Assembly: GCA_018060845.1 (NCBI GenBank)
Contig: JAGOVG010000002.1
Location: 23,581 to 87,580 of the forward strand
Length of the DNA stretch: 64,000 nt
Source: Candidatus Woesebacteria bacterium
GTDB taxonomy: Bacteria; Patescibacteriota; Microgenomatia; UBA1400; UBA12108
Reading direction: 5' to 3'
This document shows positions 2 to 37,548 of the stretch, piece after piece. The number at the start of each line of letters is the position of its first letter. The first letter of the stretch is position 1. Below the pieces are notes generated by a model, which had not been told where the DNA came from, made no database searches, and saw nothing but the letters and a program-made list of their open reading frames with translations. The translations under genes were made by a program, and so were the position numbers.

Positions 2-697
2 GTTTTTGATCTTATCAAAACTGACTATATCCTCTATCTCGATGGCGACGAGTCAGTCACACCATCGCTCATTAATAAGCTAGCCGAGCTGGCAGATGGT
101 GGGGTAGATTACGTAAAGATCCCGAGGCAAAATTACATTTTTAATTCTTGGGTTCAAGCTAGTCGGTGGTGGCCAGACTATCAGGTACGTTTTTTCAAAA
201 AAGGTATGGTAACCTTCCCAACCACGCTCCATAGTGAGCCAGTTGCGACTGGTCACGAGGTAGTGCTCCCAGCGACGCCCGATCTCTCAATCAAACATCT
301 CAACTATCAAAACCTAGACGAGTGGTTACAAAAGAATCAACGCTACGCTCGGGCAGATGCTCAGGATCGCATAAACAGCGGTGAGGAATTTAGTATTTTG
401 ACCGCCTGTCGACTCTCAGTCTCTGAGCTAGTGAGCCGCTTTTTTGCAGGATCTGGTTATGCCGATGGCATGCACGGGCTAGTGCTCAGCATCCTCCAGT
501 CTTTCTATTATTTCTTAGTCTATGCCTACTACTGGGAAGGTAAAAAATATGAGAGCAACCTCTCAATACAGGAGATCAAATCAGTGCCACGAAAATGGTT
601 TGGCCACGGCTTGTCTGAGATTATGTTTTGGGACAATCAGGACAATGGTTTGCTTAATAAGCTCAAGGGGAAACTCAAGCGAAAGTTACTAGCATGA
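2..697 (+). CDS. GT2 glycosyltransferase, WaaE/KdtX-like, C-terminal part (5' end lies outside the window)
   Basis: Frame 2 is open from the window edge to TGA 695-697. Translation VFDLIKTDYILYLDGDESVTP...IPRQNYIFNSWVQASRWWPDYQVRFFKKG parallels the DxDE ... RRNY.LG...HGG.YPD...RLF block of the paralogs at 2986-3774 and 10237-11046. Confidence 0.7.
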   Translation, partial: VFDLIKTDYILYLDGDESVTPSLINKLAELADGGVDYVKIPRQNYIFNSWVQASRWWPDYQVRFFKKGMVTFPTTLHSEPVATGHEVVLPATPDLSIKHLNYQNLDEWLQKNQRYARADAQDRINSGEEFSILTACRLSVSELVSRFFAGSGYADGMHGLVLSILQSFYYFLVYAYYWEGKKYESNLSIQEIKSVPRKWFGHGLSEIMFWDNQDNGLLNKLKGKLKRKLLA

Positions 698-1584
698 AAA
701 AGACAAAAAAAATCAAACACGCGGCAATATTGATCAACTATTCTGATGCAAAAACTACCGCTGACTGCGTTAACAGTATCAAGGCTTCCAAGGATGCTCC
801 GCACATAATCGTCGTCGATAATGGCAGTAGCGATGAGTGTATTGCAGAACTAAAGTCTCTCTGCCCTAATCTAGACCTAATCCAAGCCGGTAGCAATCTC
901 GGATACTCCGCTGGCAATAATATCGGAATCAAAAAAGCACTGAGGCTGGGCGCGCAGGTCGTCTATATTATCAACAACGATACACTAGTAGACCAGAACC
1001 TTTTCTTTAGAGCTTACCGCTATGTTGCCAACAAGACTCGTATTGCAGGCGCTAAGATTTACTACGCAAAAGGTCATGAATATCACGAGGAGTCTAAGGG
1101 GAAGGGGGATATCCTCTGGTATGCTGGCGGATATTTTGATTATGCAACAGCGACTGCTCGCCACTACGGGATCGATGAGCGCGATCAGTCTCAGTATGAC
1201 AAAATCAGACCTGTTGAGTTTGTAACTGGTTGTTTTATGGCAATTCCCCGAGTAGTGCTAAACAAAATCGGCAACTTTAGCGAGGAATATTTCCTCTATC
1301 TAGAAGATACGGACTATTGCTTGCGCGCACAACAGCGTGGGGTCGAGGTAATGTATAACCCTAATCTCGTGCTATATCATCTCAATGGCGGTAGTACCAA
1401 AGCCGGAAGCAAGTTAGTTGACTATTACATGACCAGAAATCGCTTTTTGATCGCTAAGAGGTACGGGAGCTGGAGACTCAGGTTTGCACTACTTAGGGAG
1501 GGGCTGCGTAACTGGTCCGACCCCACTCGAAGGCGCGCACTAATTGATTACCTGAGTAGTAAGTTGGGTAATCGCAGCCTATGA
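694..1584 (+). CDS. GT2 family glycosyltransferase (rhamnosyl/galactofuranosyl-transferase-like)
   Basis: ATG 694 overlaps the upstream TGA (ATGA). Motifs VVDNGSSDEC, YSAGNNIGIK and ED.DYCLRA are typical of GT2 (GT-A fold, DxD). Confidence 0.75.
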   Translation: MKKTKKIKHAAILINYSDAKTTADCVNSIKASKDAPHIIVVDNGSSDECIAELKSLCPNLDLIQAGSNLGYSAGNNIGIKKALRLGAQVVYIINNDTLVDQNLFFRAYRYVANKTRIAGAKIYYAKGHEYHEESKGKGDILWYAGGYFDYATATARHYGIDERDQSQYDKIRPVEFVTGCFMAIPRVVLNKIGNFSEEYFLYLEDTDYCLRAQQRGVEVMYNPNLVLYHLNGGSTKAGSKLVDYYMTRNRFLIAKRYGSWRLRFALLREGLRNWSDPTRRRALIDYLSSKLGNRSL

Positions 1585-3008
1585 TCAAACTAGATTCAAA
1601 TATTCTAAAAAAGATTACTCTGTTCTTCTTGGCAGTTACTACTATTCTGCTATACCACAACCTCGGGCGGGACTACCTCTATGACTGGGATGAGAGTATC
1701 TATGCTCAACTAGGTGTCGAACAGTCAATAAATACTTTGCTCACTCCTACCTGGAATGGTGAATTATGGTTAGAAAAACCACCACTTATCGCTCACCTGA
1801 CAGCGCTTGGGAATGTGGTTAGTAGTGATGGAGAGCTAGGTGCACGGCTATTTATCCCGATAGCCACACTAGTTACCTTGGTCTCAGTCTATGTGATTGG
1901 TGTTCACATCGGGGGAGCTGTTACTGGCTCGATTGGTACTATGATGCTCATGTATTTTGATCTCTTTATTGGTCGAAGTCGAAGTGTTAATACCGATATC
2001 TTCTTGCTCGCAGGGATAACCCTCGCAGTCGCCCTAATCCTCAAAAATGCCAAAACTTACTTAGTTGCACTCGCTCTCGCACTCGCCATCTTAGCCAAAG
2101 GTCCCGCCGGCATCCTCGCCATTTTTATCATGCTGCCGCTCTTGCTAAGCAAACCAAAAAAATACATTCTACTTTCTACTATCTACTTACTACTCTTCAC
2201 TCTCCCATGGCATCTCTACCAGCTATTCATAAATGGGGCAGATTTTTACACACCATATCTACTAGAGCAAGTGATCAGGCGCGCTACAGTCCCGATCGAG
2301 TTTCATATGGAGTCTCGCTGGTTTTATTTTGTGCACTTATATCGAGATCTGGGTGTTGGAGTGTTGCTTGCGTCAGTACTCGGACTGTTAGCATCACTCA
2401 AAAAAAAGAACTACTTACTAGTATGGTGGGTGGTTTTGCCACTCGCAATTTTTACTATTGCTAAGACTCGGCTATCTTGGTATATCCTGCCAGTATATCC
2501 CGCGATCGCTCTCTCAATCGGTTATATTTTTGAATATTTAACTAGTGGCGTAGCCAAAAAATATCGATGGGCTCTAGTCGGACTTGTATCACTAATTGCC
2601 TTGCAATCACTTTTGCATCTTGGTAAGACTACAGAGGTGAGTAGAGTAAATACCACCTATCCCGACCACATTAAGATCGCACTCACTCTATCCGACTATC
2701 TAGAGCCATCCATCGCGTTCTTGGTGAGCCAGAGCGAGCGAACCGCTGAGGCTATTCTGCCGGATAGTCAGCGGCTCAGCAGCAGCTTCCGCTACGGTGG
2801 TGCACCATCGGTAGTTTTTTATAGTGGTAAAAAAGTTGCGTATTATTACAACTATGATCTTTTTATCAAAGACTTAAACGAAGGTGTTCATGAGCTAGCG
2901 GTAGTCACGATAGGGGATATCGACAAAGTCCCAGACAATTACCGAGAAGTTGGGCGTGAGGGTGCATACTATGCCTACCAGAAAGATGTCTCATATGCTA
3001 AGCGTTAG
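1581..3008 (+). CDS. Polytopic membrane glycosyltransferase, GT-C fold (PMT/ArnT-like, GT39/GT83-type)
   Basis: 475 aa with about 11 predicted TM helices. The first extracytoplasmic loop carries YDWDESIYAQ (D-E motif of PMT/ArnT-type GT-C). ATGA overlap with the upstream gene. Confidence 0.65.
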   Translation: MIKLDSNILKKITLFFLAVTTILLYHNLGRDYLYDWDESIYAQLGVEQSINTLLTPTWNGELWLEKPPLIAHLTALGNVVSSDGELGARLFIPIATLVTLVSVYVIGVHIGGAVTGSIGTMMLMYFDLFIGRSRSVNTDIFLLAGITLAVALILKNAKTYLVALALALAILAKGPAGILAIFIMLPLLLSKPKKYILLSTIYLLLFTLPWHLYQLFINGADFYTPYLLEQVIRRATVPIEFHMESRWFYFVHLYRDLGVGVLLASVLGLLASLKKKNYLLVWWVVLPLAIFTIAKTRLSWYILPVYPAIALSIGYIFEYLTSGVAKKYRWALVGLVSLIALQSLLHLGKTTEVSRVNTTYPDHIKIALTLSDYLEPSIAFLVSQSERTAEAILPDSQRLSSSFRYGGAPSVVFYSGKKVAYYYNYDLFIKDLNEGVHELAVVTIGDIDKVPDNYREVGREGAYYAYQKDVSYAKR

Positions 3009-3774
3009 TACACAAATAGCAAAAGAAGATGATCTATCGGTTTTTGCACGCATGCTGGATAGTGTCCGCTCGGCCGATGAGGTAATTATCTTTAATATGG
3101 AGCGCAAGGATAGTGAAGCACAAAAACTTTTTGGCAAATATCATGCTCGGGTAATTAACATCAAAACCCCGAAAGTTGTCGAAGAGATCAGGGAGCGTCA
3201 GATCAAAGAGTCTAAATCTGATTGGATACTAGTTATGGACTACGACGAGGTAATAACAGCAGGTCTCGCCAAAGAGATTAAAAAAGTGGTAGGAAGTAGT
3301 AATCAAAAGTATGGTGCCTATTACATAACTCGCCGCAACTATTCGCTCGGCTATCCATTAAAGCACGGTGGTTTTGGTGACGATGTAGTTCCTCGCTTAT
3401 TCAATAGATCTGAGTTTATAAGCTGGCCTACAGAGATCCACGGTATGCCAAAAATAAAAGGTGAATTTGGTTATCTAACTAACCCAATGGAACATCACAA
3501 AGATGCGAGCCTCGCACAAATGGTCGCAAAGACCAATAGGTATACGGATGTTGAGGCACACCAGTTTTTTGAGGGCGGAGTAGCTGATGTTACCCAGATC
3601 ACTCTGCTTCGCAAAACTATCATGGAGTTTATCAGGCGTTTTGTCATTAAGGCAGGTTTTCTCGATGGCAAGATTGGCACCATCCAAGCTCTCTATCAGA
3701 GCTACGCCATCTATCTGCGCTACGCCAAACTTTACGAAATCCAAAACAATATGAAAATTGAGCACAACCGATAA
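2986..3774 (+). CDS. GT2 glycosyltransferase, WaaE/KdtX-like
   Basis: DYDEVI, YYITRRNYSLGYPLKHGGFGDDVVPRLFNR. The start is ambiguous: in-frame ATGs at 2971, 2986 and 2995, and the track ORF begins at TTG 2950. It overlaps the end of the upstream gene. Confidence 0.7.
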   Translation: MSHMLSVSTQIAKEDDLSVFARMLDSVRSADEVIIFNMERKDSEAQKLFGKYHARVINIKTPKVVEEIRERQIKESKSDWILVMDYDEVITAGLAKEIKKVVGSSNQKYGAYYITRRNYSLGYPLKHGGFGDDVVPRLFNRSEFISWPTEIHGMPKIKGEFGYLTNPMEHHKDASLAQMVAKTNRYTDVEAHQFFEGGVADVTQITLLRKTIMEFIRRFVIKAGFLDGKIGTIQALYQSYAIYLRYAKLYEIQNNMKIEHNR

Positions 3775-3775
3775 T

Positions 3776-4837
3776 ATGAATAATTCGAAATCCCGCAATG
3801 GCGGGAAGGCTCTTATCGTCTCTCCCTACTTAGACCACTTAGGCGGAGGGGAGCGCTATATGCTCACCTGCGCAAGCTCCCTTGAGTCACTCGGTTACGA
3901 AGTGAGTATTGGCTGGGATAACCTGGAGTCTATCAGTAACATCTGTCGCATGCTCGCCATTGATCTAAAAAATCCTGTCTTAGTCCCACATATTCGAGAG
4001 CTATACCACAGCCGCAATCCCCTCGCTATGTTTATGGCTACCCGCCCTTACGACGTTGTGGTCTACCTCTCTGACGGCTCTATCCCCCTGCTAGGTGGCC
4101 GGGTCAATCTGCTTCATATGCAGGTGCCATTTCACAATGTGAATGGATCTAACTGGAAGAACAAACTCAAACTAAAAACTATACATCGAGTTATAGTCAA
4201 TTCGAACTTTACGAAGAAAATAGTCGACTCAGAATATGGCATTGATTCATTTGTCCTCTACCCACCAGTCAGTAGCAATAATAAAGTAGGTGCCAAAGAA
4301 AAAATAATTCTCTCTGTCGGTCGCTTTGAACCTTCGCTCAACGTCAAAAAACAGGATGTCCTGATCAATGCCTTCAAAAAAATCTCATCAACTCTATCAG
4401 ATTGGAAGCTCATACTAGTCGGCGGGAGCACCGAAGATAGCTGGATCAAAGAGTTAAATGAACAGGCTGCCGGCTACAACATCGATATACTGCCAAACGT
4501 AGATAGTACTACTCTAGTAGATCTGTACGGTAAAGCTAGTATCTATTGGCACGCTGCCGGATACGGCGTAGACGAAGCTAGGAGTCCCGAGCTAGTAGAG
4601 CATTTTGGCATTAGTACAGTCGAGGCCATCGCCGCGCGTGTCCTCCCACTAGTCTACCGAGCCGGCGGGCAGACCGAGATAGTCAAGCACGATGATCTGC
4701 TCTGGGAGACTATTGATGAGTTAGTTAACAAAACAATTAACCTTACAAATAAAAACTTTAGTCACTACGAGAGCGTGCTCAAAATTGATAGCTTCTCCGA
4801 AGAGGCATTTAAGAACACTCTAAAAACCTTGTTATGA
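3776..4837 (+). CDS. GT4 family glycosyltransferase (GT-B fold)
   Basis: C-terminal E..G(I)STVEAIAARVLPLVYRAGGQTEIV block is typical of GT4. The first ATG is 3776, immediately after the upstream TAA; the track start at 3758 is a TTG. Confidence 0.7.
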   Translation: MNNSKSRNGGKALIVSPYLDHLGGGERYMLTCASSLESLGYEVSIGWDNLESISNICRMLAIDLKNPVLVPHIRELYHSRNPLAMFMATRPYDVVVYLSDGSIPLLGGRVNLLHMQVPFHNVNGSNWKNKLKLKTIHRVIVNSNFTKKIVDSEYGIDSFVLYPPVSSNNKVGAKEKIILSVGRFEPSLNVKKQDVLINAFKKISSTLSDWKLILVGGSTEDSWIKELNEQAAGYNIDILPNVDSTTLVDLYGKASIYWHAAGYGVDEARSPELVEHFGISTVEAIAARVLPLVYRAGGQTEIVKHDDLLWETIDELVNKTINLTNKNFSHYESVLKIDSFSEEAFKNTLKTLL

Positions 4838-6180
4838 AAATAATATTAAATTACGCCCTACCAATCGGCATCATCATCCTCGCGGCGTTTCTGCGCTTCA
4901 ATAACCTAAGCTACCGTGCACCCTTTGACTGGGATCAAAATCGCGACTACCAAGAAGTAGCAAAGATTGCTTCAGGCAAGCTAACTCTCATTGGTCCTGT
5001 TGCCCGCGGCGAGGGTGGGTTTTTTCTCGGCCCGCTTTATTACTACCTCCTCACTCCATCATTTGTCATAACGGGAGAGGATCCAATTGCACTCCCAGTT
5101 TCTAGCATCTTGTTAGATATTCTTGCAATTGGGCTCATTCTCTACTTAGGCAAGTATCTAGGTAATGCCAAATTTGGCTACCTTTTTTCACTCTTCTACG
5201 CTCTCTCGCCGAGCATGGTAGATGCATCTCTCGTCTCATGGAATGTTGCACTCTTGCCTCTCTGGGTCATCGCGATGCTACTCTTTTTGATCAAGCCAAA
5301 ATACAAAAGTATTGACCTCTTACTTGGTGGACTATTGCTCGGATCTAGCTGGCATATCCATGCGGCACTGATCCCGCTCGCACCTATCCTCCTCCTAGCT
5401 CGCTCCCGCTCTATCTCACTATTTTCTATTAAGTCCTTATGGTTGGTCACAGGCTACCTTCTCATGCTCTCGCCTCTCATCCTCTTTGATATCAGACACG
5501 TGGGGTTGCAGTCTAACTTAATCTCGAGCATGGTGACTGCTCAAGGTGAATCACGCGCTGCACTCCCTCTACTACTTGATTCTGTTTTGTCTCGCTTTGG
5601 CAAAAATCTCTCTAGTATGTTTGGAGGGCCAGGTGATCTTAATCTTTGGTTAGGTATCGTGGGATTATCTACATCTCTAGTTGCGGCCATCCGTGGTAAT
5701 GTGTTGTTGAGATTGTCAGCTCTCGCTGTTATTGCCAACATTACTCTTGTTATCCTCTTGGGATCGGTTGGCTTCCCAGAGTACTATCTCGCAACTGCGA
5801 CGATCGGCACACTACTAATCATTACTTACATCTTGTCTACTCACTGGCTAGGGATAGTCATAGCACTTTCTCTCTCACTTTTTTTACTCGCCACAAATAG
5901 CGCGACCGTTGGTCCATTCACGCTCGGTCACAAACTAGATCTTGTGTCTGTTGTTACAGAAGATAAGAGTCTTCATAAAGTCCTCTATGACCTTCCATAT
6001 GGGCGAGATAGCGGTCTGCCAGTTCTACTTAAACGTAGCGGTGCCCATACAAGTAGCGAGGGCAGAGTAATCTATATGATTAGCGACAAAACCGACCCCT
6101 CGCTATTTATAGAGGGTGAGATCGCGAGCGAGGTAGGCTGGTACGGCGGATTTCGATTAGTAAAGAGGGAGTTAAGATAG
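4834..6180 (+). CDS. Polytopic membrane protein, GT-C-like glycosyltransferase candidate
   Basis: 448 aa and highly hydrophobic. N-proximal loop FDWDQNRDYQEV resembles the PMT/ArnT loop-1 motif. ATGA overlap. Confidence 0.5.
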   Translation: MKIILNYALPIGIIILAAFLRFNNLSYRAPFDWDQNRDYQEVAKIASGKLTLIGPVARGEGGFFLGPLYYYLLTPSFVITGEDPIALPVSSILLDILAIGLILYLGKYLGNAKFGYLFSLFYALSPSMVDASLVSWNVALLPLWVIAMLLFLIKPKYKSIDLLLGGLLLGSSWHIHAALIPLAPILLLARSRSISLFSIKSLWLVTGYLLMLSPLILFDIRHVGLQSNLISSMVTAQGESRAALPLLLDSVLSRFGKNLSSMFGGPGDLNLWLGIVGLSTSLVAAIRGNVLLRLSALAVIANITLVILLGSVGFPEYYLATATIGTLLIITYILSTHWLGIVIALSLSLFLLATNSATVGPFTLGHKLDLVSVVTEDKSLHKVLYDLPYGRDSGLPVLLKRSGAHTSSEGRVIYMISDKTDPSLFIEGEIASEVGWYGGFRLVKRELR

Positions 6181-6184
6181 ATAT

Positions 6185-7096
6185 ATGAAGAAACAATTGA
6201 GTAAGTCCATCACTGTCGCCATTCCCTCTTGGAATAGTGCCAAACAACTAAAGAAAAATTTGCCTTCGGTTATCAACGCAGCCAAAAGGGTAAATGCCGA
6301 GATAATCATTGTCGATGATGCAAGCTCCGATGACTCAGTCGCTATAATCAAAGGAGACTGGGGTTATCCAATCAAGCTTGTACAAAATTCGACCAACCAG
6401 GGATACGGCGAGACCATTAATCGTGCGGTTGCTCTCGCCCAGTCAGAGCTTGTGGTGATCTTAAATACCGACGTCTCGCTAAGCGATGACTGTATCGAAA
6501 AATCACTTCCCTACTTTGTAGATCCATCGGTCTTTGCCTTAGGTTTAAACTCAGGCGAGGGGTATATGCGAGTCAAATGGGATCGCGGACTCTTTCATCA
6601 TTTTAAAGGGGTAACTGGGGTAGAAGATCCTGGCGTTACTCCAAGTAGTCTCTGGGCTTCAGGAGGTCAGAGTGTTGTCAGACGGTCTTATTGGCTAGAG
6701 CTCGGGGGAATGTGTCCACTCTACAAGCCATTTTACTGGGAAGATACAGACCTCGGCTACGCAGCCTGGAAGAGGGGATACACAATCCTCTGGGGTCGGG
6801 ATTGTCACTGTGTTCATGATCACGAATCTAGCGTAATCGCAGGGAGCTTTGGTAAAAAAGATGTGATGGATGTGGCTCAGCGTAATCAGTTCCTCTTTAT
6901 CTGGAAGAATATTAGTGACGTAGGTCTCTTGCTAACTCATCTACTCTATTTACCAATCTATCTGATTCGCTATCCGAGGACCGTCATATCTGCTCTACGC
7001 TATCTACCTACTGCACTTAAATATCGCAAACTTCAGTCACAGTACTGGACACGGCTTGATGAGGATATACTATCAATATGGCGAGACTCACAATGA
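6185..7096 (+). CDS. GT2 family glycosyltransferase
   Basis: VAIPSWNSAKQL, IIVDDASSDDS, YWEDTDLGYAAWKRG. Confidence 0.7.
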   Translation: MKKQLSKSITVAIPSWNSAKQLKKNLPSVINAAKRVNAEIIIVDDASSDDSVAIIKGDWGYPIKLVQNSTNQGYGETINRAVALAQSELVVILNTDVSLSDDCIEKSLPYFVDPSVFALGLNSGEGYMRVKWDRGLFHHFKGVTGVEDPGVTPSSLWASGGQSVVRRSYWLELGGMCPLYKPFYWEDTDLGYAAWKRGYTILWGRDCHCVHDHESSVIAGSFGKKDVMDVAQRNQFLFIWKNISDVGLLLTHLLYLPIYLIRYPRTVISALRYLPTALKYRKLQSQYWTRLDEDILSIWRDSQ

Positions 7097-8730
7097 TCAT
7101 TAGTTTTATCAAGAAACACTTCTTAATCCTGACCCTTGCTCTGGCACTACTCTTGCGTGTAGTCAACCTATCAACTAATCCTCCTGAGCTAAACTGGGAC
7201 GAGATCAGCATGGGCTACACTGCCTACTCACTACTAGAGACTGGTCGAGACGAATGGGGTGAGCCTTGGCCCATTCTCTTCCGCTCGTACGGCGAATGGA
7301 AATCACCTGTCTATATCTACCTCCTCATTCCGTTTATCAAAATTTTTGGCCTTACCGAGTGGGGCGTCAGGTTGCCGGCCGCTCTCTTTGGAGTACTCAC
7401 AGTTTATCTTACATATGTTCTAGCTATCAGGCTCTATTCGCGTCGGGTAGGCCTACTCGCAGCATTATTTCTTGCTGTCTCACCATGGCACCTCATGCTC
7501 TCTCGTCCTGCGTTTGAGGCAGGGGTCGCGCTCGCTCTCATCCTCGCCGGCCTGCTATTTTTCTTAAAAAGCATCGAAAAAAACCCTTTAACCTTTAACC
7601 TTTACGCTTTAATCTCAGCGACAGCGTTTGGTCTCTCACTCCACACCTACCATAGTGCCAAAATCGTGGTACCTCTCCTTATCCTCTACATAGGTTGGGT
7701 ATACAGAGCTCGCTTGAGTCTCAAATCACTCATTGCCCCAATCCTAGTTCTTTCTATTTTTGCATATCCAATAGCAAGCGACGTAGTAACCGGCAAGACT
7801 CAGGCACGCTACAATCAGGTAGGCATCACAACCGATGCCGAGCTGACCGAGCGCTTTTTCCGCTATAGAAACACCGCTCCATTTGGTGAGCTAGGCAACA
7901 AAATAGTTTTTAATAAATATACTTTTATCCTCTCTAAGGGGTTCTCTAACTGGACATCTTACCTCTCCCCACATTTTCTCCTGGGTTCTAGTAGTATCAG
8001 AGCGCAGCATAGTATCCCATTCCGCGGCGTACTATATTTTGTTGAGTTTGGGCTCGCAGTCTATGGATTATTTTTACTCAAAAAGTCCTCCTCGCCACTG
8101 CGATACCTCCCAATCGTGCTCATCCTGGTCGGTTTTATCCCACCAGCACTAACCAAAGATATTTATCATGTGCTCCGTAGCATCTTGACCCTGCCTTGGT
8201 GGCAAGTACTCGCGGCCTTAGGACTCAGCGAGCTATTATCCAATAAAAAGTATCAAAAACTTTCTACTTTTACTTTGCTACTTTTAGCTTGCGAAGTAGT
8301 AATCTTTGTCTTTATCTACTTCGCCTGGTACCCCAATGCCTTTGCCAGGGACTGGCAGTATGGACACAAAGCTATCGCCGCATGGGTTCAGGCTAACGAG
8401 AGTAAGTATAAGCAGGTCTATATGACCAAAGCATATGGAGAACCACAGCTCTTCCTCGCTTTTTACAACAAATGGGATCCTAACTGGTATCAAGAAGAGA
8501 ACAAAAAGTTAATCGAATACGAATCCCGTGGTTACCCGTGGCTAGATCAGCTACCAGAGTATAGTCTCGGCAAATACACTTTTAGAGATATCAACTGGCC
8601 CGTCGATAACGGGAAGAACGAAATGGTCTTTATTGGCAAAGGTGACGACTTTTGGCTCGATACCCCCCACCCACTAAGTATTAACTTCCCCGATGGGACT
8701 GCTGCATTTAGAGTTTCTGAGGGCAAATAG
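7078..8730 (+). CDS. Polytopic membrane glycosyltransferase, GT-C fold (PMT/ArnT-like)
   Basis: 550 aa and multi-TM. Loop-1 motif LNWDEISMGYTAYSL. Overlaps the upstream gene by 19 nt. Confidence 0.65.
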   Translation: MARLTMIISFIKKHFLILTLALALLLRVVNLSTNPPELNWDEISMGYTAYSLLETGRDEWGEPWPILFRSYGEWKSPVYIYLLIPFIKIFGLTEWGVRLPAALFGVLTVYLTYVLAIRLYSRRVGLLAALFLAVSPWHLMLSRPAFEAGVALALILAGLLFFLKSIEKNPLTFNLYALISATAFGLSLHTYHSAKIVVPLLILYIGWVYRARLSLKSLIAPILVLSIFAYPIASDVVTGKTQARYNQVGITTDAELTERFFRYRNTAPFGELGNKIVFNKYTFILSKGFSNWTSYLSPHFLLGSSSIRAQHSIPFRGVLYFVEFGLAVYGLFLLKKSSSPLRYLPIVLILVGFIPPALTKDIYHVLRSILTLPWWQVLAALGLSELLSNKKYQKLSTFTLLLLACEVVIFVFIYFAWYPNAFARDWQYGHKAIAAWVQANESKYKQVYMTKAYGEPQLFLAFYNKWDPNWYQEENKKLIEYESRGYPWLDQLPEYSLGKYTFRDINWPVDNGKNEMVFIGKGDDFWLDTPHPLSINFPDGTAAFRVSEGK

Positions 8731-8731
8731 C

Positions 8732-10222
8732 ATGAACTATTTCAGGCTATTCCTTGTAATACTTGCTCTAGGTATCTTCGCTATAACTCTCCCATACTAT
8801 CGTAGTCATATTTTTGCAGTACATTTCGTAGATGAGGATGACAATATCGTGATCGGCAATTACCTTCGCGAAGGTAAAAAGCTCTACACGGATATTTTCT
8901 CTCAGCATCAACCAAGTATGTTTGTGTTGTCTGCTGCTCTGCAGGATAGAGTCTTCGTAAATAATGTTCAGATGGTCGTTCAGCGTCACCGCGAACTGAT
9001 GATCGTTTGGAGTTTATTATGGGTAATCTTCTTGGTAGCTCGATTTGGTTTTCCACTACTACTAACCACAAGTGTAATCGAAATGTCGAAGATAGCCTTA
9101 TTAGGCAACCTCTTCTTAGCAGAAAGCATAGTGATCTACCCACTCATCTATGTATTAGCCCATTATTTTTTTGCTCCCTCAATCATCAAGACTAGTGAAA
9201 AAATAATCTTATCAATAGTGTTCTGGTTTTTATGGTATAGCTTAACCCCGCTCTGGCCATTATTAATCCTTATATTCTTGATCTTTGGCTATAAAAATCG
9301 TAGTGATATTTCGTTACTCAAAATTTACATCACAACCGCGGCTATATTTACTTTGTTGCTCTTAATAATAACCAATTTTCGCGACTATTTTATTAGTGCT
9401 CTATATATTAACTACAAATATTACATTCCGCTAACAACCCCATTCGGATTCGCAGAATCGATCTACAAATCACTTTTTGCGCCCATCCTGGCTATATTCT
9501 CGACCCACACAGGGGAACTACTCATGCTAATTCGTATACTCTCGGTAGCTTTGATAATAAACATTGCTTACCTCATAAAATCAAAAAAATATATGCAAGT
9601 GGTGATAACTGTAATTTTATTATGGCTTACTTCACTTAGGTATATCGACCCAGCAGGTATGCTATATGGCGTGTTTCATATGCTGCCATGGTTTGCAGTC
9701 TTGACGATACTTTCATTTATAAATGACGCCACCCCAAAACTCGTTAACATCATTATGATGATCATGGTTATACTAGCAGCGTGCGGGGTCGCGCGAACAA
9801 ATCTATTTGACAGTCGTATTCCAGAAAATGACTATTATATTAACTTTTCACCTAAGTCAGATATCAGGGAGGCGGTCAAGATTTTGTCCGTTTCTTCACC
9901 TCAGACAATCTGGGTCGAACCAGTAATGTATTACCCTCATTGGCGAACCAAAGCACGTCCTTACACCAAAATGGTCAACTATTACGGTTGGATGGATCAA
10001 ACCGAGCCAATGAAGAGTGATCTTGATCACAATCTAGAGATAAACTTACCTACAATTGTCTACGCAGAAACTAAGCTAGGAATAGGTACTTATTTAGAAA
10101 AATATATTCCGATTACTAGAGAGGGTAGGCCAAGCGGGCTTTATCTGCGAGCCGATCAAGTTGATGGGTTAAGCAAAGAGACTCGCGCGCACCTGCTATA
10201 TTATAGATTTGAAATTAACTAA
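8732..10222 (+). CDS. Polytopic membrane protein (GT-C candidate)
   Basis: About 497 aa and very hydrophobic. VHFVDEDDNIV acidic loop near the N-terminus. First ATG at 8732, just after the upstream TAG. Confidence 0.45.
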   Translation: MNYFRLFLVILALGIFAITLPYYRSHIFAVHFVDEDDNIVIGNYLREGKKLYTDIFSQHQPSMFVLSAALQDRVFVNNVQMVVQRHRELMIVWSLLWVIFLVARFGFPLLLTTSVIEMSKIALLGNLFLAESIVIYPLIYVLAHYFFAPSIIKTSEKIILSIVFWFLWYSLTPLWPLLILIFLIFGYKNRSDISLLKIYITTAAIFTLLLLIITNFRDYFISALYINYKYYIPLTTPFGFAESIYKSLFAPILAIFSTHTGELLMLIRILSVALIINIAYLIKSKKYMQVVITVILLWLTSLRYIDPAGMLYGVFHMLPWFAVLTILSFINDATPKLVNIIMMIMVILAACGVARTNLFDSRIPENDYYINFSPKSDIREAVKILSVSSPQTIWVEPVMYYPHWRTKARPYTKMVNYYGWMDQTEPMKSDLDHNLEINLPTIVYAETKLGIGTYLEKYIPITREGRPSGLYLRADQVDGLSKETRAHLLYYRFEIN

Positions 10223-10236
10223 GCTATACTAAATAT

Positions 10237-11046
10237 ATGAACAATACTATTAATGGGCTAAGCGTCGCCTTAGCTGTCTACAACGAAGAATCTAGTTTGG
10301 CTGAGTGCTTAGATAGTATCAAAGACTTGGCGCATGAAATAATAATAGTCGACGGTAACTCGAGCGACAATACAGTCCAAATCGCTGAAAGTTACGGCGC
10401 CAAGGTCATCCATGAGTCCAATCGCCAAAACTTTCACATTAACAAGCAGTTAGCAATTGACGCCTGTACTGGTGACTGGGTGCTACAGCTAGACGCCGAT
10501 GAACGTGTCAGCTCTATGCTAGCTAATGAAATTAAGCAGGTTATTAGGGACCCAGGTGCCAAAGATGCTTATTATCTAAAGCGGCGCAACTACTTTCTCG
10601 GTCGTTTCATGAATAAAGGAGGAATGTATCCTGATCCAGTCATCCGCTTATTCAAAAAGGGGAAGGCCAAGCTACCTCAAGCTAGCGTACACGAGTTAAT
10701 GGCGGTCGATGGTACTCTAGCCTGGCTTCACAACGACTTGATCCATATCGCGGACCCAACATTTACTCGTTATCTACTCCGTAGTAATAGGTACACCACC
10801 CTAACGTCTCTCGACTACGCGAGAGATAATATTGGTACGAGCACTGTCACTATCCTCAACTATATGCTCCTCAAACCATTTGTCCGTTTTGTAACCATTT
10901 ACTTCCGACACAAAGGTTTCCAGGATGGTTTTCCCGGCTTTGTCTTTGCACTATATTCAGGCCTACATATCGCGAGTTCGTATGTTAAATACTGGGAAAA
11001 AAAGACAACCAACCAATCAACCTCTATGAAACATGATTGGAATTAG
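10237..11046 (+). CDS. GT2 glycosyltransferase, WaaE/KdtX-like
   Basis: LSVALAVYNEESSL, IIIVDGNSSDNT, LQLDADE, YYLKRRNYFLGRFMNKGGMYPDPVIRLFKKG. Confidence 0.75.
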   Translation: MNNTINGLSVALAVYNEESSLAECLDSIKDLAHEIIIVDGNSSDNTVQIAESYGAKVIHESNRQNFHINKQLAIDACTGDWVLQLDADERVSSMLANEIKQVIRDPGAKDAYYLKRRNYFLGRFMNKGGMYPDPVIRLFKKGKAKLPQASVHELMAVDGTLAWLHNDLIHIADPTFTRYLLRSNRYTTLTSLDYARDNIGTSTVTILNYMLLKPFVRFVTIYFRHKGFQDGFPGFVFALYSGLHIASSYVKYWEKKTTNQSTSMKHDWN

Positions 11047-12697
11047 CATGAAAAGACTGCTGCAAAAATATTTTCCTATCCTACTTATTTTAATATCAGG
11101 TCTGTTTTTGACATCGAGCCTGCTTAAGTCAGGTTGGTACCTCTCTCACGATGGTATTTTTCACATCTACCGAACCGAAGAAGCACTCTCCATGCTCAAG
11201 CTTGGACACTTTCCGCTGCGTTGGGCAGGCAACTTTGATCAAGGATTTGGCATACCACTCTTTAGTTTTGTTTATCCACTCCCATACTATATTAGCGCCA
11301 CATTATCAGTAATCTTTGGGACCATGTGGTCACTAAAGATGCTGACTATACTCGCTTACCTCCTAGGCGGCACAGGGATGTATTATCTGCTCTCCGCTTA
11401 TGGCCGGAGTTTTGGTATCTTTGGCGCCCTAATCTTCCTATTAACCCCTTACCAGTTTCTAAATATCTTTGTCCGTGGCACAATCGGAGAGACTCTCGCC
11501 ATTGGTCTCATGCCCTGGGTTTTGTATACCTACCAGCATCTCAAAAAGTCTGGTAATACGCTCGCATGGTACCATCCCATCCCGCTCGCGCTCGTCCTCT
11601 TATCTCACAACTTCCTTGGTATTTTATTCTCAGCTTTCTTGTTGGGTTACATGTTGACTGACAGGTCTTCGATCAAGCGCTCGATTGCAAGTCTCCTATT
11701 ATCACTTAGTCTTAGTGCATTCTTTATCCTGCCAATGATCATTCAAAAAAATCTGCTTTACTCTTTTGAATACAAAGATTTGACTTTCCGTTTTGACCAA
11801 CACTTTGTTACGCTAAAACAGCTCTTATATAGCAAATGGGACTATTGGTATTCGATGCCCGGCGATAACGATGGGATGTCATTCCAGCTAGGGATCGCAC
11901 AGCTCGGGATCGCAGCCGTATCCATACTAGTCATCCTCTGGCGCAGTCGTAGTTTATCTAATATATATCTAGTGATCGCGTATATTGGCACGGTATTTCT
12001 GATGCACAGCAAGAGTTTCTTTATCTGGGACAGCTTACCACTTTTGCAGTCAGTCCAGTTCCCTTGGCGCTTCCTCTTTATGCCACTGATTCTAACCCCG
12101 ATCCTCAGTGTTTCACTACTTAAGCTAATCAAATCAAAGCAACTTCGCTACATTTTAATGTTAATTTTTATATCTGTGGCGTTTGTGAATATCCGCAACT
12201 ATCGCAACCCCCAACAATTCATGGACAACACCACTTACACAGACCTATATCGTTTGTACTACAACAAAACGAGCACTACTTTTAGAACCGAGATACTACC
12301 CAAATGGAGCGTGCCACACGAGAGGTACAAGACAGATGAAGTATTGATTAATTCTGGCAACATGACAATAGATAAGCTAAAGTATGACCCATTATCAATT
12401 ATCATGACTATCAACAACAAACCTGATAGTAGCGAGGGCAGGGTTACAATTCTACGCAACTATTACCCCGGTTGGACTGTGACCATGGATAATTCAAAGA
12501 AAATAAAGATCGAGGCAACTGTCGATGGTATGATAATGCTCAAACCAGAGCTAGGTATTCATGAATATGAGATAGTAATGAAGAGTACAGTCGTTGAGAT
12601 GATTAGCAACGCTCTATCAGGTCTCACTTTAATAACATTAGGATATTTATGGTACAAAAACAAAAAAGCACTGCATTCAAAGGCAAAGTCGAAATAA
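11033..12697 (+). CDS. Large polytopic membrane protein (YfhO/GT-C-like candidate)
   Basis: 554 aa with many TM helices. YLSHDGIFHIYRTEEA loop. Contains an internal QLGIAQLGIAA mini-repeat. Alternative start ATG 11048, just after the upstream stop. Confidence 0.45.
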   Translation: MIGISMKRLLQKYFPILLILISGLFLTSSLLKSGWYLSHDGIFHIYRTEEALSMLKLGHFPLRWAGNFDQGFGIPLFSFVYPLPYYISATLSVIFGTMWSLKMLTILAYLLGGTGMYYLLSAYGRSFGIFGALIFLLTPYQFLNIFVRGTIGETLAIGLMPWVLYTYQHLKKSGNTLAWYHPIPLALVLLSHNFLGILFSAFLLGYMLTDRSSIKRSIASLLLSLSLSAFFILPMIIQKNLLYSFEYKDLTFRFDQHFVTLKQLLYSKWDYWYSMPGDNDGMSFQLGIAQLGIAAVSILVILWRSRSLSNIYLVIAYIGTVFLMHSKSFFIWDSLPLLQSVQFPWRFLFMPLILTPILSVSLLKLIKSKQLRYILMLIFISVAFVNIRNYRNPQQFMDNTTYTDLYRLYYNKTSTTFRTEILPKWSVPHERYKTDEVLINSGNMTIDKLKYDPLSIIMTINNKPDSSEGRVTILRNYYPGWTVTMDNSKKIKIEATVDGMIMLKPELGIHEYEIVMKSTVVEMISNALSGLTLITLGYLWYKNKKALHSKAKSK

Positions 12698-13722
12698 TAG
12701 GCAAGAGTCCCTACGCAGGATCCGGCCCTCGTGGTATCGATGTCTATACGAGGCAGCTTAGTGAGCATCTATCTCGGGATCTCCCTCACGAGTCGCTGAT
12801 CGTGAGTCGTGAAGTAACTAGCAACCTCCCAGTTAACTTAGTACATTACACATTTTTTGACCCATTCTTTTTGACACTTTGGGGTAAGATCCCGAGGAGT
12901 GCTCCGTTTATAGTAACTGTCCACGATCTGATACCTCTACGTTTCCCTGAGCACTTCCCAAGTGGTGTACGCGGCAAAATTAAGTATCTGCTGCAAAAGA
13001 GCGCGCTCAAGCAGGCATCGGGGATCATCACTGACTCTGTTGCCTCAAAAGCCGATATAGTCAAATACGTAGGCTACCCTGAGTCTAGGGTTCATGTCGT
13101 ACCGCTCGCTGCCGGGAGTATTAGCGCTACAGTTGCACTTGGTCGGACTATTGCCAAAGAGTATGATCTGCCAGAACGTTACATATTGTACGTTGGTGAT
13201 ATCAACTGGAATAAGAACATTGTCGGGTTGATCAAAGCTTTTAGTAGTATCGTAGACGACAAAACTCAGCTAGTATTAGTAGGCAAAGCCTTTGCGTCAA
13301 AGTCAAATACTCCAGAATCTATCGCAATCAACGAGGCGATTTCGGCAAGTCCCAAAAAATCTTTGATAAAAATAGTAGGTTTCGTCCCGACTCATCACTT
13401 AAGCGCCATTTATCGCGGTGCCACACTCTATGTCCAGCCGTCTTGGTATGAGGGATTTGGTTTCCCAGTCATCGAAGCGCTGATTCAGGGTGCCCCGGTC
13501 CTTAGTAGTAATCAGGGTAGTCTCCCCGAAGTAGGAGGGGAGAATGTCCATTACTTTGATCCGAATGTCAGTAGCGATCTGTCAGACAAATTGAGCGTAC
13601 TCATCAAGAATGGCAATCTTCGTACCAAATACCGCGACGCGGGTATAAACTGGGCCAAGAAATTTACCTGGAAAAACGTCGCCCACGAGACTATGCTCAT
13701 CTATGAAAAATACTCACGCTAA
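12649..13722 (+). CDS. GT4 family glycosyltransferase
   Basis: EGFGFPVIEALIQGAPVLSSNQGSLPEVGG (GT4 E-x7-E region). ATG 12649 lies 49 nt inside the upstream gene. No ATG exists after the upstream stop, so the start is uncertain. Confidence 0.7.
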   Translation: MVQKQKSTAFKGKVEIIGKSPYAGSGPRGIDVYTRQLSEHLSRDLPHESLIVSREVTSNLPVNLVHYTFFDPFFLTLWGKIPRSAPFIVTVHDLIPLRFPEHFPSGVRGKIKYLLQKSALKQASGIITDSVASKADIVKYVGYPESRVHVVPLAAGSISATVALGRTIAKEYDLPERYILYVGDINWNKNIVGLIKAFSSIVDDKTQLVLVGKAFASKSNTPESIAINEAISASPKKSLIKIVGFVPTHHLSAIYRGATLYVQPSWYEGFGFPVIEALIQGAPVLSSNQGSLPEVGGENVHYFDPNVSSDLSDKLSVLIKNGNLRTKYRDAGINWAKKFTWKNVAHETMLIYEKYSR

Positions 13723-15482: not shown

Positions 15483-17291
15483 ATGAATTTCATCAAAAAA
15501 CTAATTACGCCAGTATTCTTACTTTTGATCGCACTCATAATCATCTTTCCTCGTTTTTATCAGCTAGGTGACACTCCACACGGCCTACATATCGATGAGG
15601 TTAGTTTTGCTGCTGACGCCAAGTCACTAGCCGAAACTGGCAAAGATACATGGGGAGTGACTATGCCTAGGGTTTTCAAAGCTTTTGGCGAGTATAAGGC
15701 GCCCGGCCTCACCTATAGTATGGCATTTTGGGCCAAAGTAACTGGCGACATGAACAATTATGTTGCCCGTCTCCCATCAGCGTTCGCCGGTCTAACCATG
15801 ATTGTAATGCTAGTTTTAACACTCAAAACACTTGTTCCCTCTATTAGTCCGATTCTCTTAGCTACTGTTGCTTTCATGCTCGCATATAGTCCTTGGCATT
15901 TTGATATGTCTCGTATTTTTTATGAAGCTTTTAGTGCCACGGCCTGGCTCTCTATCTCTATTTACTTTGCTACTAGACTATTACTACCATCTAAAAAAAG
16001 CTCCAAATATGACTGGCTCCTTATGCTCTCGACTGCCTCTATAGCTGGTTACTATTACGCTTCACTTCGCTACGTCATTATTATTTATGCATTAATCGTA
16101 TCTTATCTGCTAGAGACTAGGTTTAAAGCTATTCTTAAGAGAAGTGTGATAGCACTATTAGTACTCACATTGGTCGGTGTCGGCTGGGTAGGCGACCTAT
16201 TCTCCGATGTTGGCTTAAATAGACTCTACTACTATCAACAAAAAGCCGATTTTGGATCTGCCTTAGAGATCGATGAGAAACGTCAGTTCTGCTATCTAGC
16301 ACTGGATCGTGATTCAGAAGCAACGAGAGGATGCTACTTACTTTGGAATAAGCCTGTCTCGCGGATCACTGGGATCATAGCTACCACCTTGACCTATCTT
16401 GGTACTGATTTTCTGTTTATAAAAGGCGTGAGCGAGTACGGTTTTGATAGCCAGTACGGAGCGTATTTACCTCCACTTGTGCTTATTTACTTGATAGGGC
16501 TGTATTATGCTCTAACGAGCTTTGTACGCTTCATGACATCTCGATTAAAGAAGGAAGATAATTTGCAAATTAATCGAGAAGATAGGGTATTTGTTCTATA
16601 TCTAGGTCTTACACTGCTTTCGCTAGTTCCTGCAGCTGTTGCAATGAATCTAAATATGCGAATGGCAATGGTTAGTTTATATATAATCTCTATTCTAATT
16701 GGATATGGCATATATCAGTTGAACGAATACCTTGTGCGTACAGTCAAACCAACTATTCAAATACTATCTTATTGCTTGCTCGGTGGAGCATTTCTATTTT
16801 ACGCATTTCAATCAACGATCCATTATTGGTTCGTATTTACCAAAAGCAACGACCTTCAATGGACATCAGATGCAGGATCAATATTTCATTATGTTAAGAG
16901 TGTCTCTAATAGTTATGACCGTATTGTCGACACCGAACTACATGGTCCGTTGGCCCCATATTTTTACGGAGATATTACAACAGCTGAGGTTCATCATGGG
17001 GAGTACAGCAAGCCAGATGCAATAGGTTTTACATACCTAATAATGGCAGGTAAATATGAACTTAACCATATCAATATCAAAGATCTTGCATGCGAAGTAG
17101 TTAGTAAAAATGATAAGCGGAGAACTCTCTTAATTACAAATCCATACCCAGAACTCGTTTCTATGCGAAAATATGAATCACGTTCTTGGAATGGAGCACT
17201 CCTGCTTCACGAAGTCTACGATCTTGCAGACGTTATCGCATATATGCAGCGATCCGAGCCAAACTTTATGAGTCGCTGCGGGCCAAAATAA
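15483..17291 (+). CDS. Polytopic membrane glycosyltransferase, GT-C fold (PMT/ArnT-like)
   Basis: About 602 aa from ATG 15483 (MNFIKKLITPVF...). LHIDEVSFAADAKSL motif. Paralog of its neighbours. Confidence 0.6.
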   Translation: MNFIKKLITPVFLLLIALIIIFPRFYQLGDTPHGLHIDEVSFAADAKSLAETGKDTWGVTMPRVFKAFGEYKAPGLTYSMAFWAKVTGDMNNYVARLPSAFAGLTMIVMLVLTLKTLVPSISPILLATVAFMLAYSPWHFDMSRIFYEAFSATAWLSISIYFATRLLLPSKKSSKYDWLLMLSTASIAGYYYASLRYVIIIYALIVSYLLETRFKAILKRSVIALLVLTLVGVGWVGDLFSDVGLNRLYYYQQKADFGSALEIDEKRQFCYLALDRDSEATRGCYLLWNKPVSRITGIIATTLTYLGTDFLFIKGVSEYGFDSQYGAYLPPLVLIYLIGLYYALTSFVRFMTSRLKKEDNLQINREDRVFVLYLGLTLLSLVPAAVAMNLNMRMAMVSLYIISILIGYGIYQLNEYLVRTVKPTIQILSYCLLGGAFLFYAFQSTIHYWFVFTKSNDLQWTSDAGSIFHYVKSVSNSYDRIVDTELHGPLAPYFYGDITTAEVHHGEYSKPDAIGFTYLIMAGKYELNHINIKDLACEVVSKNDKRRTLLITNPYPELVSMRKYESRSWNGALLLHEVYDLADVIAYMQRSEPNFMSRCGPK

Positions 17292-17293
17292 TT

Positions 17294-18919: not shown

Positions 18920-19572
18920 AGCTATACGTTGTTGTGCCAGCATATAACGAATCAAGATTTATTGGCGCCTTCTTAGATAAATTATCCAAGAAAACTAAAA
19001 ACATTATTGTAGTAGACGACGGAAGTCGCGATCGCACAACTGACATCGTCAAATCTAAGGGGATCAAAGTGCTTACGCATATCACCAACCTGGGCAAGGG
19101 TGCTGCTTTAAAAACAGGTTGCGAGTACGCGTTTAATAGACTCGGCGCTGATGGAGTTATTATTATGGATGGAGATGATCAACACGACGTCTCAGATATC
19201 TCACAGTTTGCCAATGCACTAAGTAGAGGCGCACACATAGTTCTAGGAGTTAGAGCAATGGATAGCAGGATGCCGCTGACCCGGTTACTTGGCAACAGAT
19301 TTACTTCTGTTCTGATAAACGTTCTTTTCGGTCGCTATATCTCTGATGTCCCGAGCGGCTTCAAGGCTATGACAAAGAGTGCATACAAAAAGCTCTTATG
19401 GCACAGTAGTGGGTACGAGGTCGAGACCGAAATCGCAGTTAGGCTCGCAAAAAGTAAGATTAATTATGTAGAGATACCTATCAATACTATCTATCATGGC
19501 AAAGAGTACGGATTTAACTTGATCGACGCTGCCCGTATTATAATAAAGATACCTTACTGGATATGGAGCTAA
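18916..19572 (+). CDS. GT2 polyprenol-phosphate sugar synthase-like (Dpm1/GtrB-like) glycosyltransferase
   Basis: 218 aa. VVPAYNESRFI, VVDDGSRDRT, DGDDQHD. A short soluble GT2 typical of dolichyl/undecaprenyl-phosphate mannose/glucose synthases. ATGA overlap. Confidence 0.6.
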   Translation: MKLYVVVPAYNESRFIGAFLDKLSKKTKNIIVVDDGSRDRTTDIVKSKGIKVLTHITNLGKGAALKTGCEYAFNRLGADGVIIMDGDDQHDVSDISQFANALSRGAHIVLGVRAMDSRMPLTRLLGNRFTSVLINVLFGRYISDVPSGFKAMTKSAYKKLLWHSSGYEVETEIAVRLAKSKINYVEIPINTIYHGKEYGFNLIDAARIIIKIPYWIWS

Positions 19573-19898
19573 ACACTATGATTGGTATACAAATGTTCTC
19601 GATCGTATTTATCTTCATCATGTTATATGTCGTACGTATCCACTACAAAAAACAAGAATTGCCACGCGTAGAAGCTATGTTTTGGAGCATAGTCCTCCTA
19701 TCTCTAGCTACGATCGTAATAGTCCCTGGTAGTGCTGATGCAGTTAGAAACCTTTTTCAAGTATCGCGATTACTAGATGTAATCATGATAATAGCCTTTA
19801 TGGGAACATTTATATTCTTAATCGAGAATCGAATCCAGATAAGCAAACTCCGCTCCAAACTAGAGCTGTTGACTAGAGAGAAAGCCATGAAAGAGTAG
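19563..19898 (+). CDS. Small two-TM membrane protein with C-terminal coiled-coil tail (DUF2304-like), partner of the preceding GT2
   Basis: 111 aa, two hydrophobic helices, then charged KLRSKLELLTREKAMKE. This family commonly follows polyprenol-P GT2 genes. Alternative start ATG 19578, preceded by GGAG. Confidence 0.45.
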   Translation: MELNTMIGIQMFSIVFIFIMLYVVRIHYKKQELPRVEAMFWSIVLLSLATIVIVPGSADAVRNLFQVSRLLDVIMIIAFMGTFIFLIENRIQISKLRSKLELLTREKAMKE

Positions 19899-33476: not shown

Positions 33477-33489
33477 TCAACGAATCGAT

Positions 33490-37501: not shown

Positions 37502-37548
37502 AAAATCCCTCTACTTGCAGTCTTTTCTCAATTTGCTATTCTTTATTT

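Follow-up and report, generated by a model that had tools for sequence, protein, structure and literature searches.

Three genes near the start of a 64,000-nucleotide stretch of DNA from a Candidatus Woesebacteria bacterium (contig JAGOVG010000002.1, positions 23,581 to 87,580; hereafter the window) encode family 2 glycosyltransferases (GT2) of the WaaE/KdtX type. These genes, A1 (positions <2–697), A2 (2986–3774) and A3 (10237–11046), lie on the plus strand among polytopic membrane proteins of the GT-C type and other glycosyltransferase (GT) genes. They are paralogs over their full length, stand in a conserved gene order, and were not duplicated together with their neighbors. We consider it moderately probable that they are anciently diverged WaaE-type enzymes, each of which would transfer a single sugar to a glycan carried on a lipid. 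A preliminary description, made from the sequence alone, had proposed the same family together with a role in the core of lipopolysaccharide (LPS) and an origin by iterative duplication of a GT2 + GT/GT-C module. The useful outcome of the present analysis is to correct that description: its family assignment is right, whereas the LPS function and the module duplication are not.

Family membership of A1, A2 and A3

Open reading frames (ORFs) are present at all three positions, and BLASTP comparisons within the window confirm that the three are full-length paralogs, with identities of 25–31%. A2 and A3 share 30.6% identity over 252 residues (E 2e-30), A1 and A2 25.5% (E 5e-14), and A1 and A3 25.4% (E 1e-13). 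GTDB species representatives were scanned for relatives of A3, and 80 loci were listed, with identities of 42–88%. A1 is truncated at its 5′ end by the window edge; judged by its full-length ortholog in one of these loci (L002:1089–1991, 300 residues, 82% identical), the fragment comprises the C-terminal 231 of about 300 residues. At two other loci, where the genes run off the locus ends (L004:1–548 and L006:1–40), the A1-position gene is annotated as a two-domain GT2 fusion of 542–548 residues with two PF00535 hits, compared with the 300 residues in L002.

A multiple alignment of the three proteins shows that the shared block is conserved, with 24 invariant columns that include D-x-D-E, R-x-N-Y, D...R-x-F, two histidines, R-Y and G..DG..G. 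The remaining GT2 genes of the window match the trio only over the N-terminal ~90–130 residues (BLASTP, E 1e-5 to 1e-8). Judged by sequence comparison, the trio forms a full-length subfamily of its own, with no further members in the window, because the other GT2s share with it only the N-terminal nucleotide-binding half. The gene at 39406–40239 was considered as a fourth member and was rejected, its similarity being confined to residues ~12–164.

The core motif given in the preliminary description, DxDE...RRNY(F/S)LG...HGG.YPD...RLF, is a composite. It fits A3 (LDADE...RRNYFLG...KGGMYPD...RLF) and A2 (MDYDE...RRNYSLG...HGGFGDD...RLF) well, but A1 (LDGDE...PRQNYIF...RWWPDYQVRFF) only loosely; DxDE itself is kept in all three. 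A3 retains all of the KdtX motifs (NE, DxGSxD, DADE, RRN, G-YPD and VHE). A1 keeps most of them, with a modified DxGSxD (DLGSTED) and with HS or HQ in place of HE. In the A2 proteins of the Woesebacteria-like clade, DxGSxD is degenerate (FNMERxD, here FNMERKD) and HE is changed to HS or HG; canonical KNEE, DxGSTD, DADER and IHES are retained by the genes at the A2 position in distant lineages. None of the 16 A2 orthologs has lost the metal/diphosphate motif DxDE, RRNY or the C-terminal motifs, and identities within the A2 clade are 47–91%. Because A2 is so well conserved among these orthologs, it is judged to be under selection, and it may use a different donor or be in a non-catalytic state.

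Against the gathering threshold of PF00535 (Glycos_transf_2, 23.3 bits), A3 scores 83.2 bits (E 2.6e-23). The A1 fragment falls just under the threshold (21.9 bits) because its N-terminus is missing, and full-length A1 orthologs carry PF00535. A2 remains below it (15.1 bits, E 0.022) because FNMERxD replaces DxGSxD and HS or HG replaces HE. Pfam and NCBIfam give no subfamily-level assignment for the trio, and there is no WaaE model in these libraries.

Family membership was therefore taken from direct comparison with a KdtX protein. A KdtX-like sequence was used as retrieval bait only and is not itself evidence; the reference (P0126) is the actual Serratia marcescens protein, to which NCBI gives the name KdtX. 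The retrieval also brought many Serratia proteins named by JGI "(heptosyl)LPS beta-1,4-glucosyltransferase". A3 is 33% identical to KdtX over 252 residues (residues 3 to 253, E 3e-42), A2 25% over 256 residues (E 7e-21), and the A1 ortholog of L002 25% over 253 residues (E 4e-22). All three align end to end with this authentic KdtX, in support of the WaaE/KdtX label, and the C-terminal helical GF(L/Q)DG region is aligned in every case. In bit scores, KdtX (132) is a better match to A3 than are A2 (106) and A1 (about 60–86). In addition to the motifs listed above, A3 and KdtX have RRN-FLG, RL(F/Y), RY and GF-DG-G in common. The trio also resembles WaaE/KdtX in domain architecture, in length (~257–300 residues) and in the absence of transmembrane (TM) helices. 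No TM segments are predicted in A1, A2 or A3, and a hydrophobic-moment scan for an amphipathic membrane helix in the C-terminal domain showed the last 90 residues to be only aromatic-rich and net basic. The trio belongs to the WaaE/KdtX/LgtF-type GT2 subfamily, which is characterized by a GT-A fold, a DxD motif and a C-terminal helical domain of ~90 residues containing GF(x)DG. Its nearest family is that of the WaaE/KdtX (Serratia, Klebsiella, Proteus and Yersinia) and LgtF-type (heptosyl)LPS β-1,4-glucosyltransferases, which are GT2 enzymes.

The AlphaFold2 model of A3 (pLDDT 88) consists of a GT-A domain followed by three long C-terminal helices. The nearest solved structures found by Foldseek are SunS/ThuS (E ~1e-13) and then TarS, and the best PDB sequence match is GmaR (E 1.8e-13), followed by SunS; no WaaE/LgtF structure is among the PDB matches of A3. 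The lack of a TM segment in the trio and the proximity of A3 to GmaR and SunS set these proteins apart from the DPMS/GtrB/ArnC/CsbB type, which is usually membrane-anchored or paired with a small membrane protein; DPMS stands for dolichol-phosphate mannose synthase. They also differ from the SunS/GmaR type, since no further domain follows the ~90-residue helical one in the A proteins; SunS and GmaR carry an additional substrate-recognition domain (TPR or helical).

Gene order, phylogeny and duplication

Genes in the first 22 kb were assigned with Pfam, NCBIfam and a hydropathy scan, the Pfam scans covering window ORFs of at least 150 residues. Each trio gene is indeed followed by a GT-C-type membrane protein, within one or two genes: A1 by C3 (1581–3008), A2 by C6 (4834–6180) and A3 by C11 (11033–12697), all on the plus strand. 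C3 is PMT_2/ArnT-like with seven TM segments (PF13231 E 1.3e-9; NCBIfam ArnT E 1.6e-8), and C6 is a GT-C-like polytopic protein with eight (PMT_2 E 3.7e-4, sub-threshold). C11, with nine TM segments, has no Pfam match in the scan, and the PDB profile search with it was also empty. Its homologs carry PF10131 (PTPS_related), a few of them YfhO or PMT_2, and one is named "YfhO family protein". The top Foldseek matches of its AlphaFold2 model (pLDDT 93) are all GT-C enzymes (AftD, STT3, ArnT, AftA and EmbA/B), and Asp40 in the first loop is invariant. C11, as modeled, is a member of the GT-C superfamily: it is polytopic and has a conserved acidic residue in the first loop, and its GT-C fold is read from the AlphaFold2 model and the Foldseek matches.

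The adjacency of trio and GT-C genes is uninformative, because about half of the genes in this region (~9 of the first 19) are GT-C-like and such neighbors are expected by chance. None of the first 18 genes lacks a GT-C-like neighbor within the three genes that follow it.

The explanation first proposed for this arrangement was that a unit of a WaaE-like GT2, a second GT and a GT-C had been duplicated iteratively, one sugar being added per copy. The gene order (A1-GT2-GT-C, A2-GT4-GT-C and A3-GT-C-GT4-GT-C) fits such a history, and the A components are true paralogs, but only the GT2 component is paralogous and the neighbors were not co-duplicated. The middle genes differ in fold: g2 (694–1584, plus strand) is a cytoplasmic GT2 of another subfamily (Glyco_tranf_2_3 type by Pfam, GT-A, no TM segment), whereas g4a (3758–4837, plus strand) is a cytoplasmic GT4 with a GT-B fold (PF00534 E 4e-21). 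There is also no mutual BLAST match between g4a and the second GT4, g4b (12649–13722, plus strand; PF00534 E 5e-25). Profile-profile comparison of ortholog alignments with hhalign gives probabilities of 0.4% for C3 and C6, 3.6% for C3 and C11, and 11% for C6 and C11, compared with 98–100% within C8, C13, C14 and C15, true GT-C paralogs of which none is an A partner. By these profiles, C3, C6 and C11 are unrelated beyond the fold level; C6 against the C8 family gives 96%.

The founder of this paralog group, C8 (7078–8730), is a GT-C of the PMT/PMT_2 type identified by Pfam, BLASTP and hhalign, and C13–C15 (13703–15475, 15417–17291 and 17186–18919) are three consecutive GT-C paralogs with Pfam PMT/PMT_2 matches that are partly weak; all four are on the plus strand. 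C8 and the gene at 17186–18919 match with a BLASTP E of 2e-61.

The gene order of the window is kept with 1:1 orthologs in Woesebacteria-like relatives (L002, L004 and L006–L010). Seven distant species (L039, L049, L069, L071, L079, L080 and L085) have the order A1-g2-A2-g4a-(g7)-(C8)-A3-g4b, with the cytoplasmic transferases in a single block that contains at most one GT-C; upstream of the A1 ortholog lies a divergently transcribed pair of a DPMS-like GT2 and a YfhO/PTPS-like GT-C. Therefore, conservation applies to the run of cytoplasmic transferases, GT-C genes being interspersed in a clade-specific manner; the module postulated earlier is not conserved as a unit. Across the 80 listed species, the gene directly after A3 is a GT4 in 49 and a YfhO/PTPS-like GT-C in 23, and the gene before A3 is GT-C-like in 71. 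The listed relatives have a median of five GT-C genes per locus, and up to ten. Among the loci L029–L086, in Pace-, Ames-, Shapiro- and Levybacteria, three to five tandem C8-like GT-C paralogs occur directly upstream of the A3 ortholog; unlike the A genes, this GT-C array has itself arisen by repeated tandem duplication.

A neighbor-joining tree based on Kimura distances (68 sequences, 261 columns, 100 bootstraps) contains an A3 clade that spans all lineages, an A2 clade of the Woesebacteria-like group and a separate clade of the A2-position genes of distant lineages, each with 100% bootstrap support; the A1 groups are deep. KdtX falls among the trio groups, nearest to A3, with weak support (deep nodes 45–71%). 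Because the deep nodes are weakly supported, the claim drawn from the tree is kept to two points: the trio groups appear to be deep, and the three do not form a tight group with KdtX as its outgroup. Since the groups are about as distant from each other as from the proteobacterial KdtX, the duplications that produced the trio are, by these distances, ancient and at least as old as the divergence from it. An ongoing, cassette-like duplication does not agree with this pattern, and, together with the unrelated neighbors and the distant lineages in which A1, A2 and A3 stand without interleaved GT-Cs, the duplication of a module is essentially refuted.

The glycan gene cluster and its host lineage

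The LPS-core role was not sustained either. The homologs of A3 with 66–99% identity come from Candidatus Microgenomates, and the 80 listed GTDB loci are from Woese-, Ames-, Pace-, Shapiro- and Levybacteria and unclassified Patescibacteria, that is, from Microgenomates-type members of the candidate phyla radiation (CPR), which are ultra-small bacteria. CPR bacteria are not known to have an LPS pathway, and Microgenomates are reported to lack LPS. No GT9 heptosyltransferase, WaaA or Lpx family was found with Pfam and NCBIfam among window ORFs of at least 150 residues. Given the CPR host lineage and the lack of LPS genes in the window, glucosylation of heptosyl-LPS is an unlikely function here. 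In published work, CPR is placed inside Terrabacteria, which is described as monoderm and atypical-monoderm lineages. Many Patescibacteria-like contigs of metagenome-assembled genomes carry the titles "uncultured Pseudomonadales bacterium", "Gammaproteobacteria", "cyanobacterium" or "Vitreimonas sp."; judged by gene content, these are probably taxonomic mislabels from bulk submission.

A separate gene of the operon is the better candidate for a donor synthase. The GT2 encoded at 18916–19572 (dpm, plus strand; full-profile PF00535 match, E 4.5e-25) has as its best PDB matches the Pyrococcus furiosus dolichol-phosphate mannose synthase 5mlz (E 2e-10), ArnC and GtrB, and it is likely a polyprenyl-phosphate sugar synthase for GT-C enzymes. 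It is followed by a small membrane protein of the DUF2304 family (19563–19898, plus strand; PF10066 E 1.2e-15), a pairing that recurs in L002 and L006. Because of the resemblance of dpm to DPMS, ArnC and GtrB, and of the DUF2304 gene after it, the polyprenyl-phosphate-sugar donors of the GT-C enzymes most plausibly come from dpm rather than from the WaaE-like trio.

Over the first ~57 kb of the window, genes follow one another on the plus strand almost without a break, and in many cases the stop codon of one overlaps the start codon of the next. In addition to the genes already described, the operon in the first part includes g7 (6185–7096), a GT2 of non-WaaE type (PF00535 E 8e-21), and M9 (8693–10222), a polytopic membrane protein of 509 residues with eight TM segments and no family match in Pfam or NCBIfam. 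M9 is a variable insertion between C8 and A3, with a locally lower GC content (0.41); it is present in L007, L008, L011, L017 and L025 and absent from L002, L009 and L010. Beyond the DUF2304 gene, the operon continues with the GT2 g17 (19900–20676) and a DUF2079 membrane protein (20700–22079), both from Pfam matches. Further downstream, the Pfam scan identified a Wzx-type flippase (38169–39446), a Wzy_C protein (47762–49426) and an initiating phosphoglycosyltransferase of the Bac_transf family (56755–57414). All of these genes are on the plus strand. DUF4012 also occurs in the downstream part, after which the glycan cluster gives way to RecO and a class II aminoacyl-tRNA synthetase.

Taken as a whole, positions 1–57414, up to RecO, are one plus-strand glycan supercluster. 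It includes roughly 12–15 GT-C-like or other polytopic membrane proteins, at least nine GT4 and at least eleven GT2 genes, three S-adenosylmethionine methyltransferases, an FkbM methyltransferase, a UDP-GlcNAc 2-epimerase, two SDR epimerases/dehydratases, a NUDIX protein, a hexapeptide acyltransferase, a sugar-1-phosphate nucleotidyltransferase, and the Wzx, Wzy_C, Bac_transf and DUF4012 proteins. One gene (28105–30342) encodes a fusion of 745 residues, with a GT4 at residues ~23–390 and a C-terminal domain that has weak matches to the glucuronyl C5-epimerase C-terminus, pectate lyase, GH127 and LanC-like proteins, and that looks like an alpha/alpha-toroid. Several conserved proteins without a Pfam family are encoded at 23022–25267, 31917–34617 and 36389–38148 (317 residues with three TM segments, 431 with eleven, 519 with nine, 375 with five, and 370 and 199 residues); those of 317 and 431 residues have orthologs with 59–81% identity at the matching position in L006. 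The ORF at 52954–53481 (175 residues, TTG start, no Pfam match) is the sole sizeable minus-strand ORF that overlaps plus-strand ORFs by a few bases at most. It fills a gap of ~500 bp between plus-strand genes, and it may be spurious, the gap being an internal promoter region.

Proposed role of the trio and competing explanations

The explanation that we favor, with moderate confidence, is that the trio acts within the glycan-biosynthesis supercluster of ~57 kb on one strand, the first ~20 kb of which is a conserved operon. What we infer of donor, acceptor and order of action is as follows. Each A enzyme would be a soluble or peripheral cytoplasmic inverting transferase that uses a nucleotide sugar and acts on a membrane-anchored, lipid-linked glycan intermediate at the cytoplasmic face, comparable to WaaE acting on lipid A-core. 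The trio would work in series with g2, g7, g4a and g4b, giving seven cytoplasmic transferases whose order is kept in distant lineages. The glycan would then be exported, candidate flippases being a Polysacc_synt/MurJ-type protein directly upstream in L002 and the Wzx-type protein in the window. After export, the GT-C enzymes would decorate or extend it with polyprenyl-phosphate sugars supplied by dpm and the DUF2304 protein. The acceptor would not be an LPS-core heptose; a more likely acceptor is an envelope glycoconjugate specific to the lineage, for example a lipoglycan, a polysaccharide of the wall or the precursor of an S-layer glycan. The window context is of polysaccharide type, with a Wzx-like flippase, Wzy_C, Bac_transf, epimerases and methyltransferases.

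Several observations weigh against this explanation. The nearest solved structures of A3 are protein or peptide glycosyltransferases, not lipid-glycan enzymes. A2 of the window clade lacks DxGSxD and HE, A1 lacks the glutamate of HE, and A1 and/or A2 may have altered chemistry or be non-catalytic. Additionally, the overlapping reading frames of A3 and C11 (14 nt) and of C3 and A2 (23 nt), together with the GT-C array that almost always precedes A3, could also reflect a direct coupling of A and GT-C proteins in function. Such coupling would be expected if each A protein were a polyprenyl-phosphate sugar synthase for the adjoining GT-C, in the manner of CsbB/YfhO, GtrB/GtrC or ArnC/ArnT, and the GT-C fold of C11 and the YfhO/PTPS-like GT-C after A3 in more than a quarter of the species are consistent with it. 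We regard this as unlikely, however, since the A proteins have no TM helices, are homologous over their full length to KdtX, an enzyme that acts on a sugar acceptor, and have GmaR, SunS and TarS rather than DPMS, GtrB or ArnC as their best PDB matches. Moreover, a genuine DPMS-type GT2 with DUF2304 is present in the operon and pairs divergently with a YfhO-like GT-C in distant lineages, and the gene that most often follows A3 is a GT4.

The structural matches would suit cytoplasmic enzymes that glycosylate proteins or peptides, such as pilins, S-layer proteins or secreted peptides, since GmaR and then SunS are the best PDB sequence matches of A3, SunS/ThuS lead in Foldseek, and an A-type protein has a weak SunS match in NCBIfam. 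SunS/ThuS (glycocin S-glycosylation) and GmaR (flagellin O-GlcNAc) act on proteins or peptides, and, as in A3, their GT-A domain is followed by a helical region. This possibility is given little credence here. The identity to A3 is only 17–19% for SunS and 16–19% over the top structural matches, with TM-scores of ~0.5–0.6 in Foldseek, compared with the full-length identity of 33% to KdtX; the A proteins are short (260–300 residues), with no room for an extra substrate-recognition domain; and they are encoded in a polysaccharide-type cluster with a flippase, a polymerase/ligase-like protein and an initiating phosphoglycosyltransferase. The ranking in the PDB may also reflect the lack of a WaaE/LgtF structure among the matches. 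A different possibility concerns activity: A2 of the window clade, and possibly A1, could be an inactive pseudo-glycosyltransferase that serves as a scaffold or binds the acceptor, with only A3 active. The Woesebacteria-like A2 orthologs uniformly lack DxGSxD and the glutamate of HE, which distant A2-position genes keep, and A2 fails the Pfam GT2 model; yet the conservation of DxDE, RRNY and the C-terminal motifs in 16 of 16 orthologs, and the identity within a fully supported clade, fit a functional enzyme, possibly one that uses another donor, kept by purifying selection. Inactivity of A2 thus seems improbable, and it is compatible with the favored explanation as far as A3 is concerned.

Comparison with known systems indicates where the locus departs from them. 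Unlike WaaE/KdtX, the trio occurs in a CPR/Microgenomates host, in a window with no waa, lpx or heptosyltransferase genes, next to GT-C, GT4 and DPMS-like genes rather than waaA/coaD, and in three divergent copies per locus, of which A2 lacks the nucleotide motif. The locus resembles CsbB/YfhO, GtrB/GtrC and ArnC/ArnT in combining a DPMS/GtrB-like GT2 and a small membrane protein with GT-Cs, including the YfhO/PTPS-related C11, and the divergent pair in distant lineages recalls CsbB/YfhO in particular; unlike in these two-component systems, the WaaE-like trio is not the GtrB-type part, and the number of GT-Cs is far higher. The combination of cytoplasmic transferases, a polyprenyl-phosphate sugar synthase and a paralogous GT-C array is reminiscent of lipomannan, lipoarabinomannan and arabinogalactan assembly in Corynebacterineae, and the nearest matches of the C11 model include AftD, AftA and EmbB in addition to ArnT and STT3. 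The likeness is no more than an analogy; beyond the fold level, no protein here is orthologous to Pim, Mpt, Emb or Aft. In the literature searched, this cluster is not described from CPR, and for WaaE/KdtX the search yielded nothing but papers on the LPS of Gram-negative bacteria.

That a glycan cluster contains paralogous GT2 genes is ordinary glycobiology; the locus is of more value as an entry to the chemistry of the CPR envelope. The operon common to Woese-, Ames-, Pace-, Shapiro- and Levybacteria, with three WaaE-like GT2s, two further GT2s, two GT4s, a DPMS-like GT2 with DUF2304 and five to ten GT-C enzymes, is a concrete target for the study of surface display in episymbiont-like CPR/Microgenomates, and its existence shows that the occurrence of WaaE-type enzymes extends beyond LPS cores. 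Tentatively, the seven cytoplasmic transferases and the GT-C array may build an undescribed, Microgenomates-wide envelope glycoconjugate, although we consider this possible rather than probable. If so, WaaE-type enzymes would be building a lipid-anchored "core oligosaccharide" in bacteria that lack LPS, as a CPR counterpart of the LPS core or of mycobacterial lipoglycan assembly, and A3, the most conserved gene of the locus (42–88% identity across classes), would catalyze an invariant core step.

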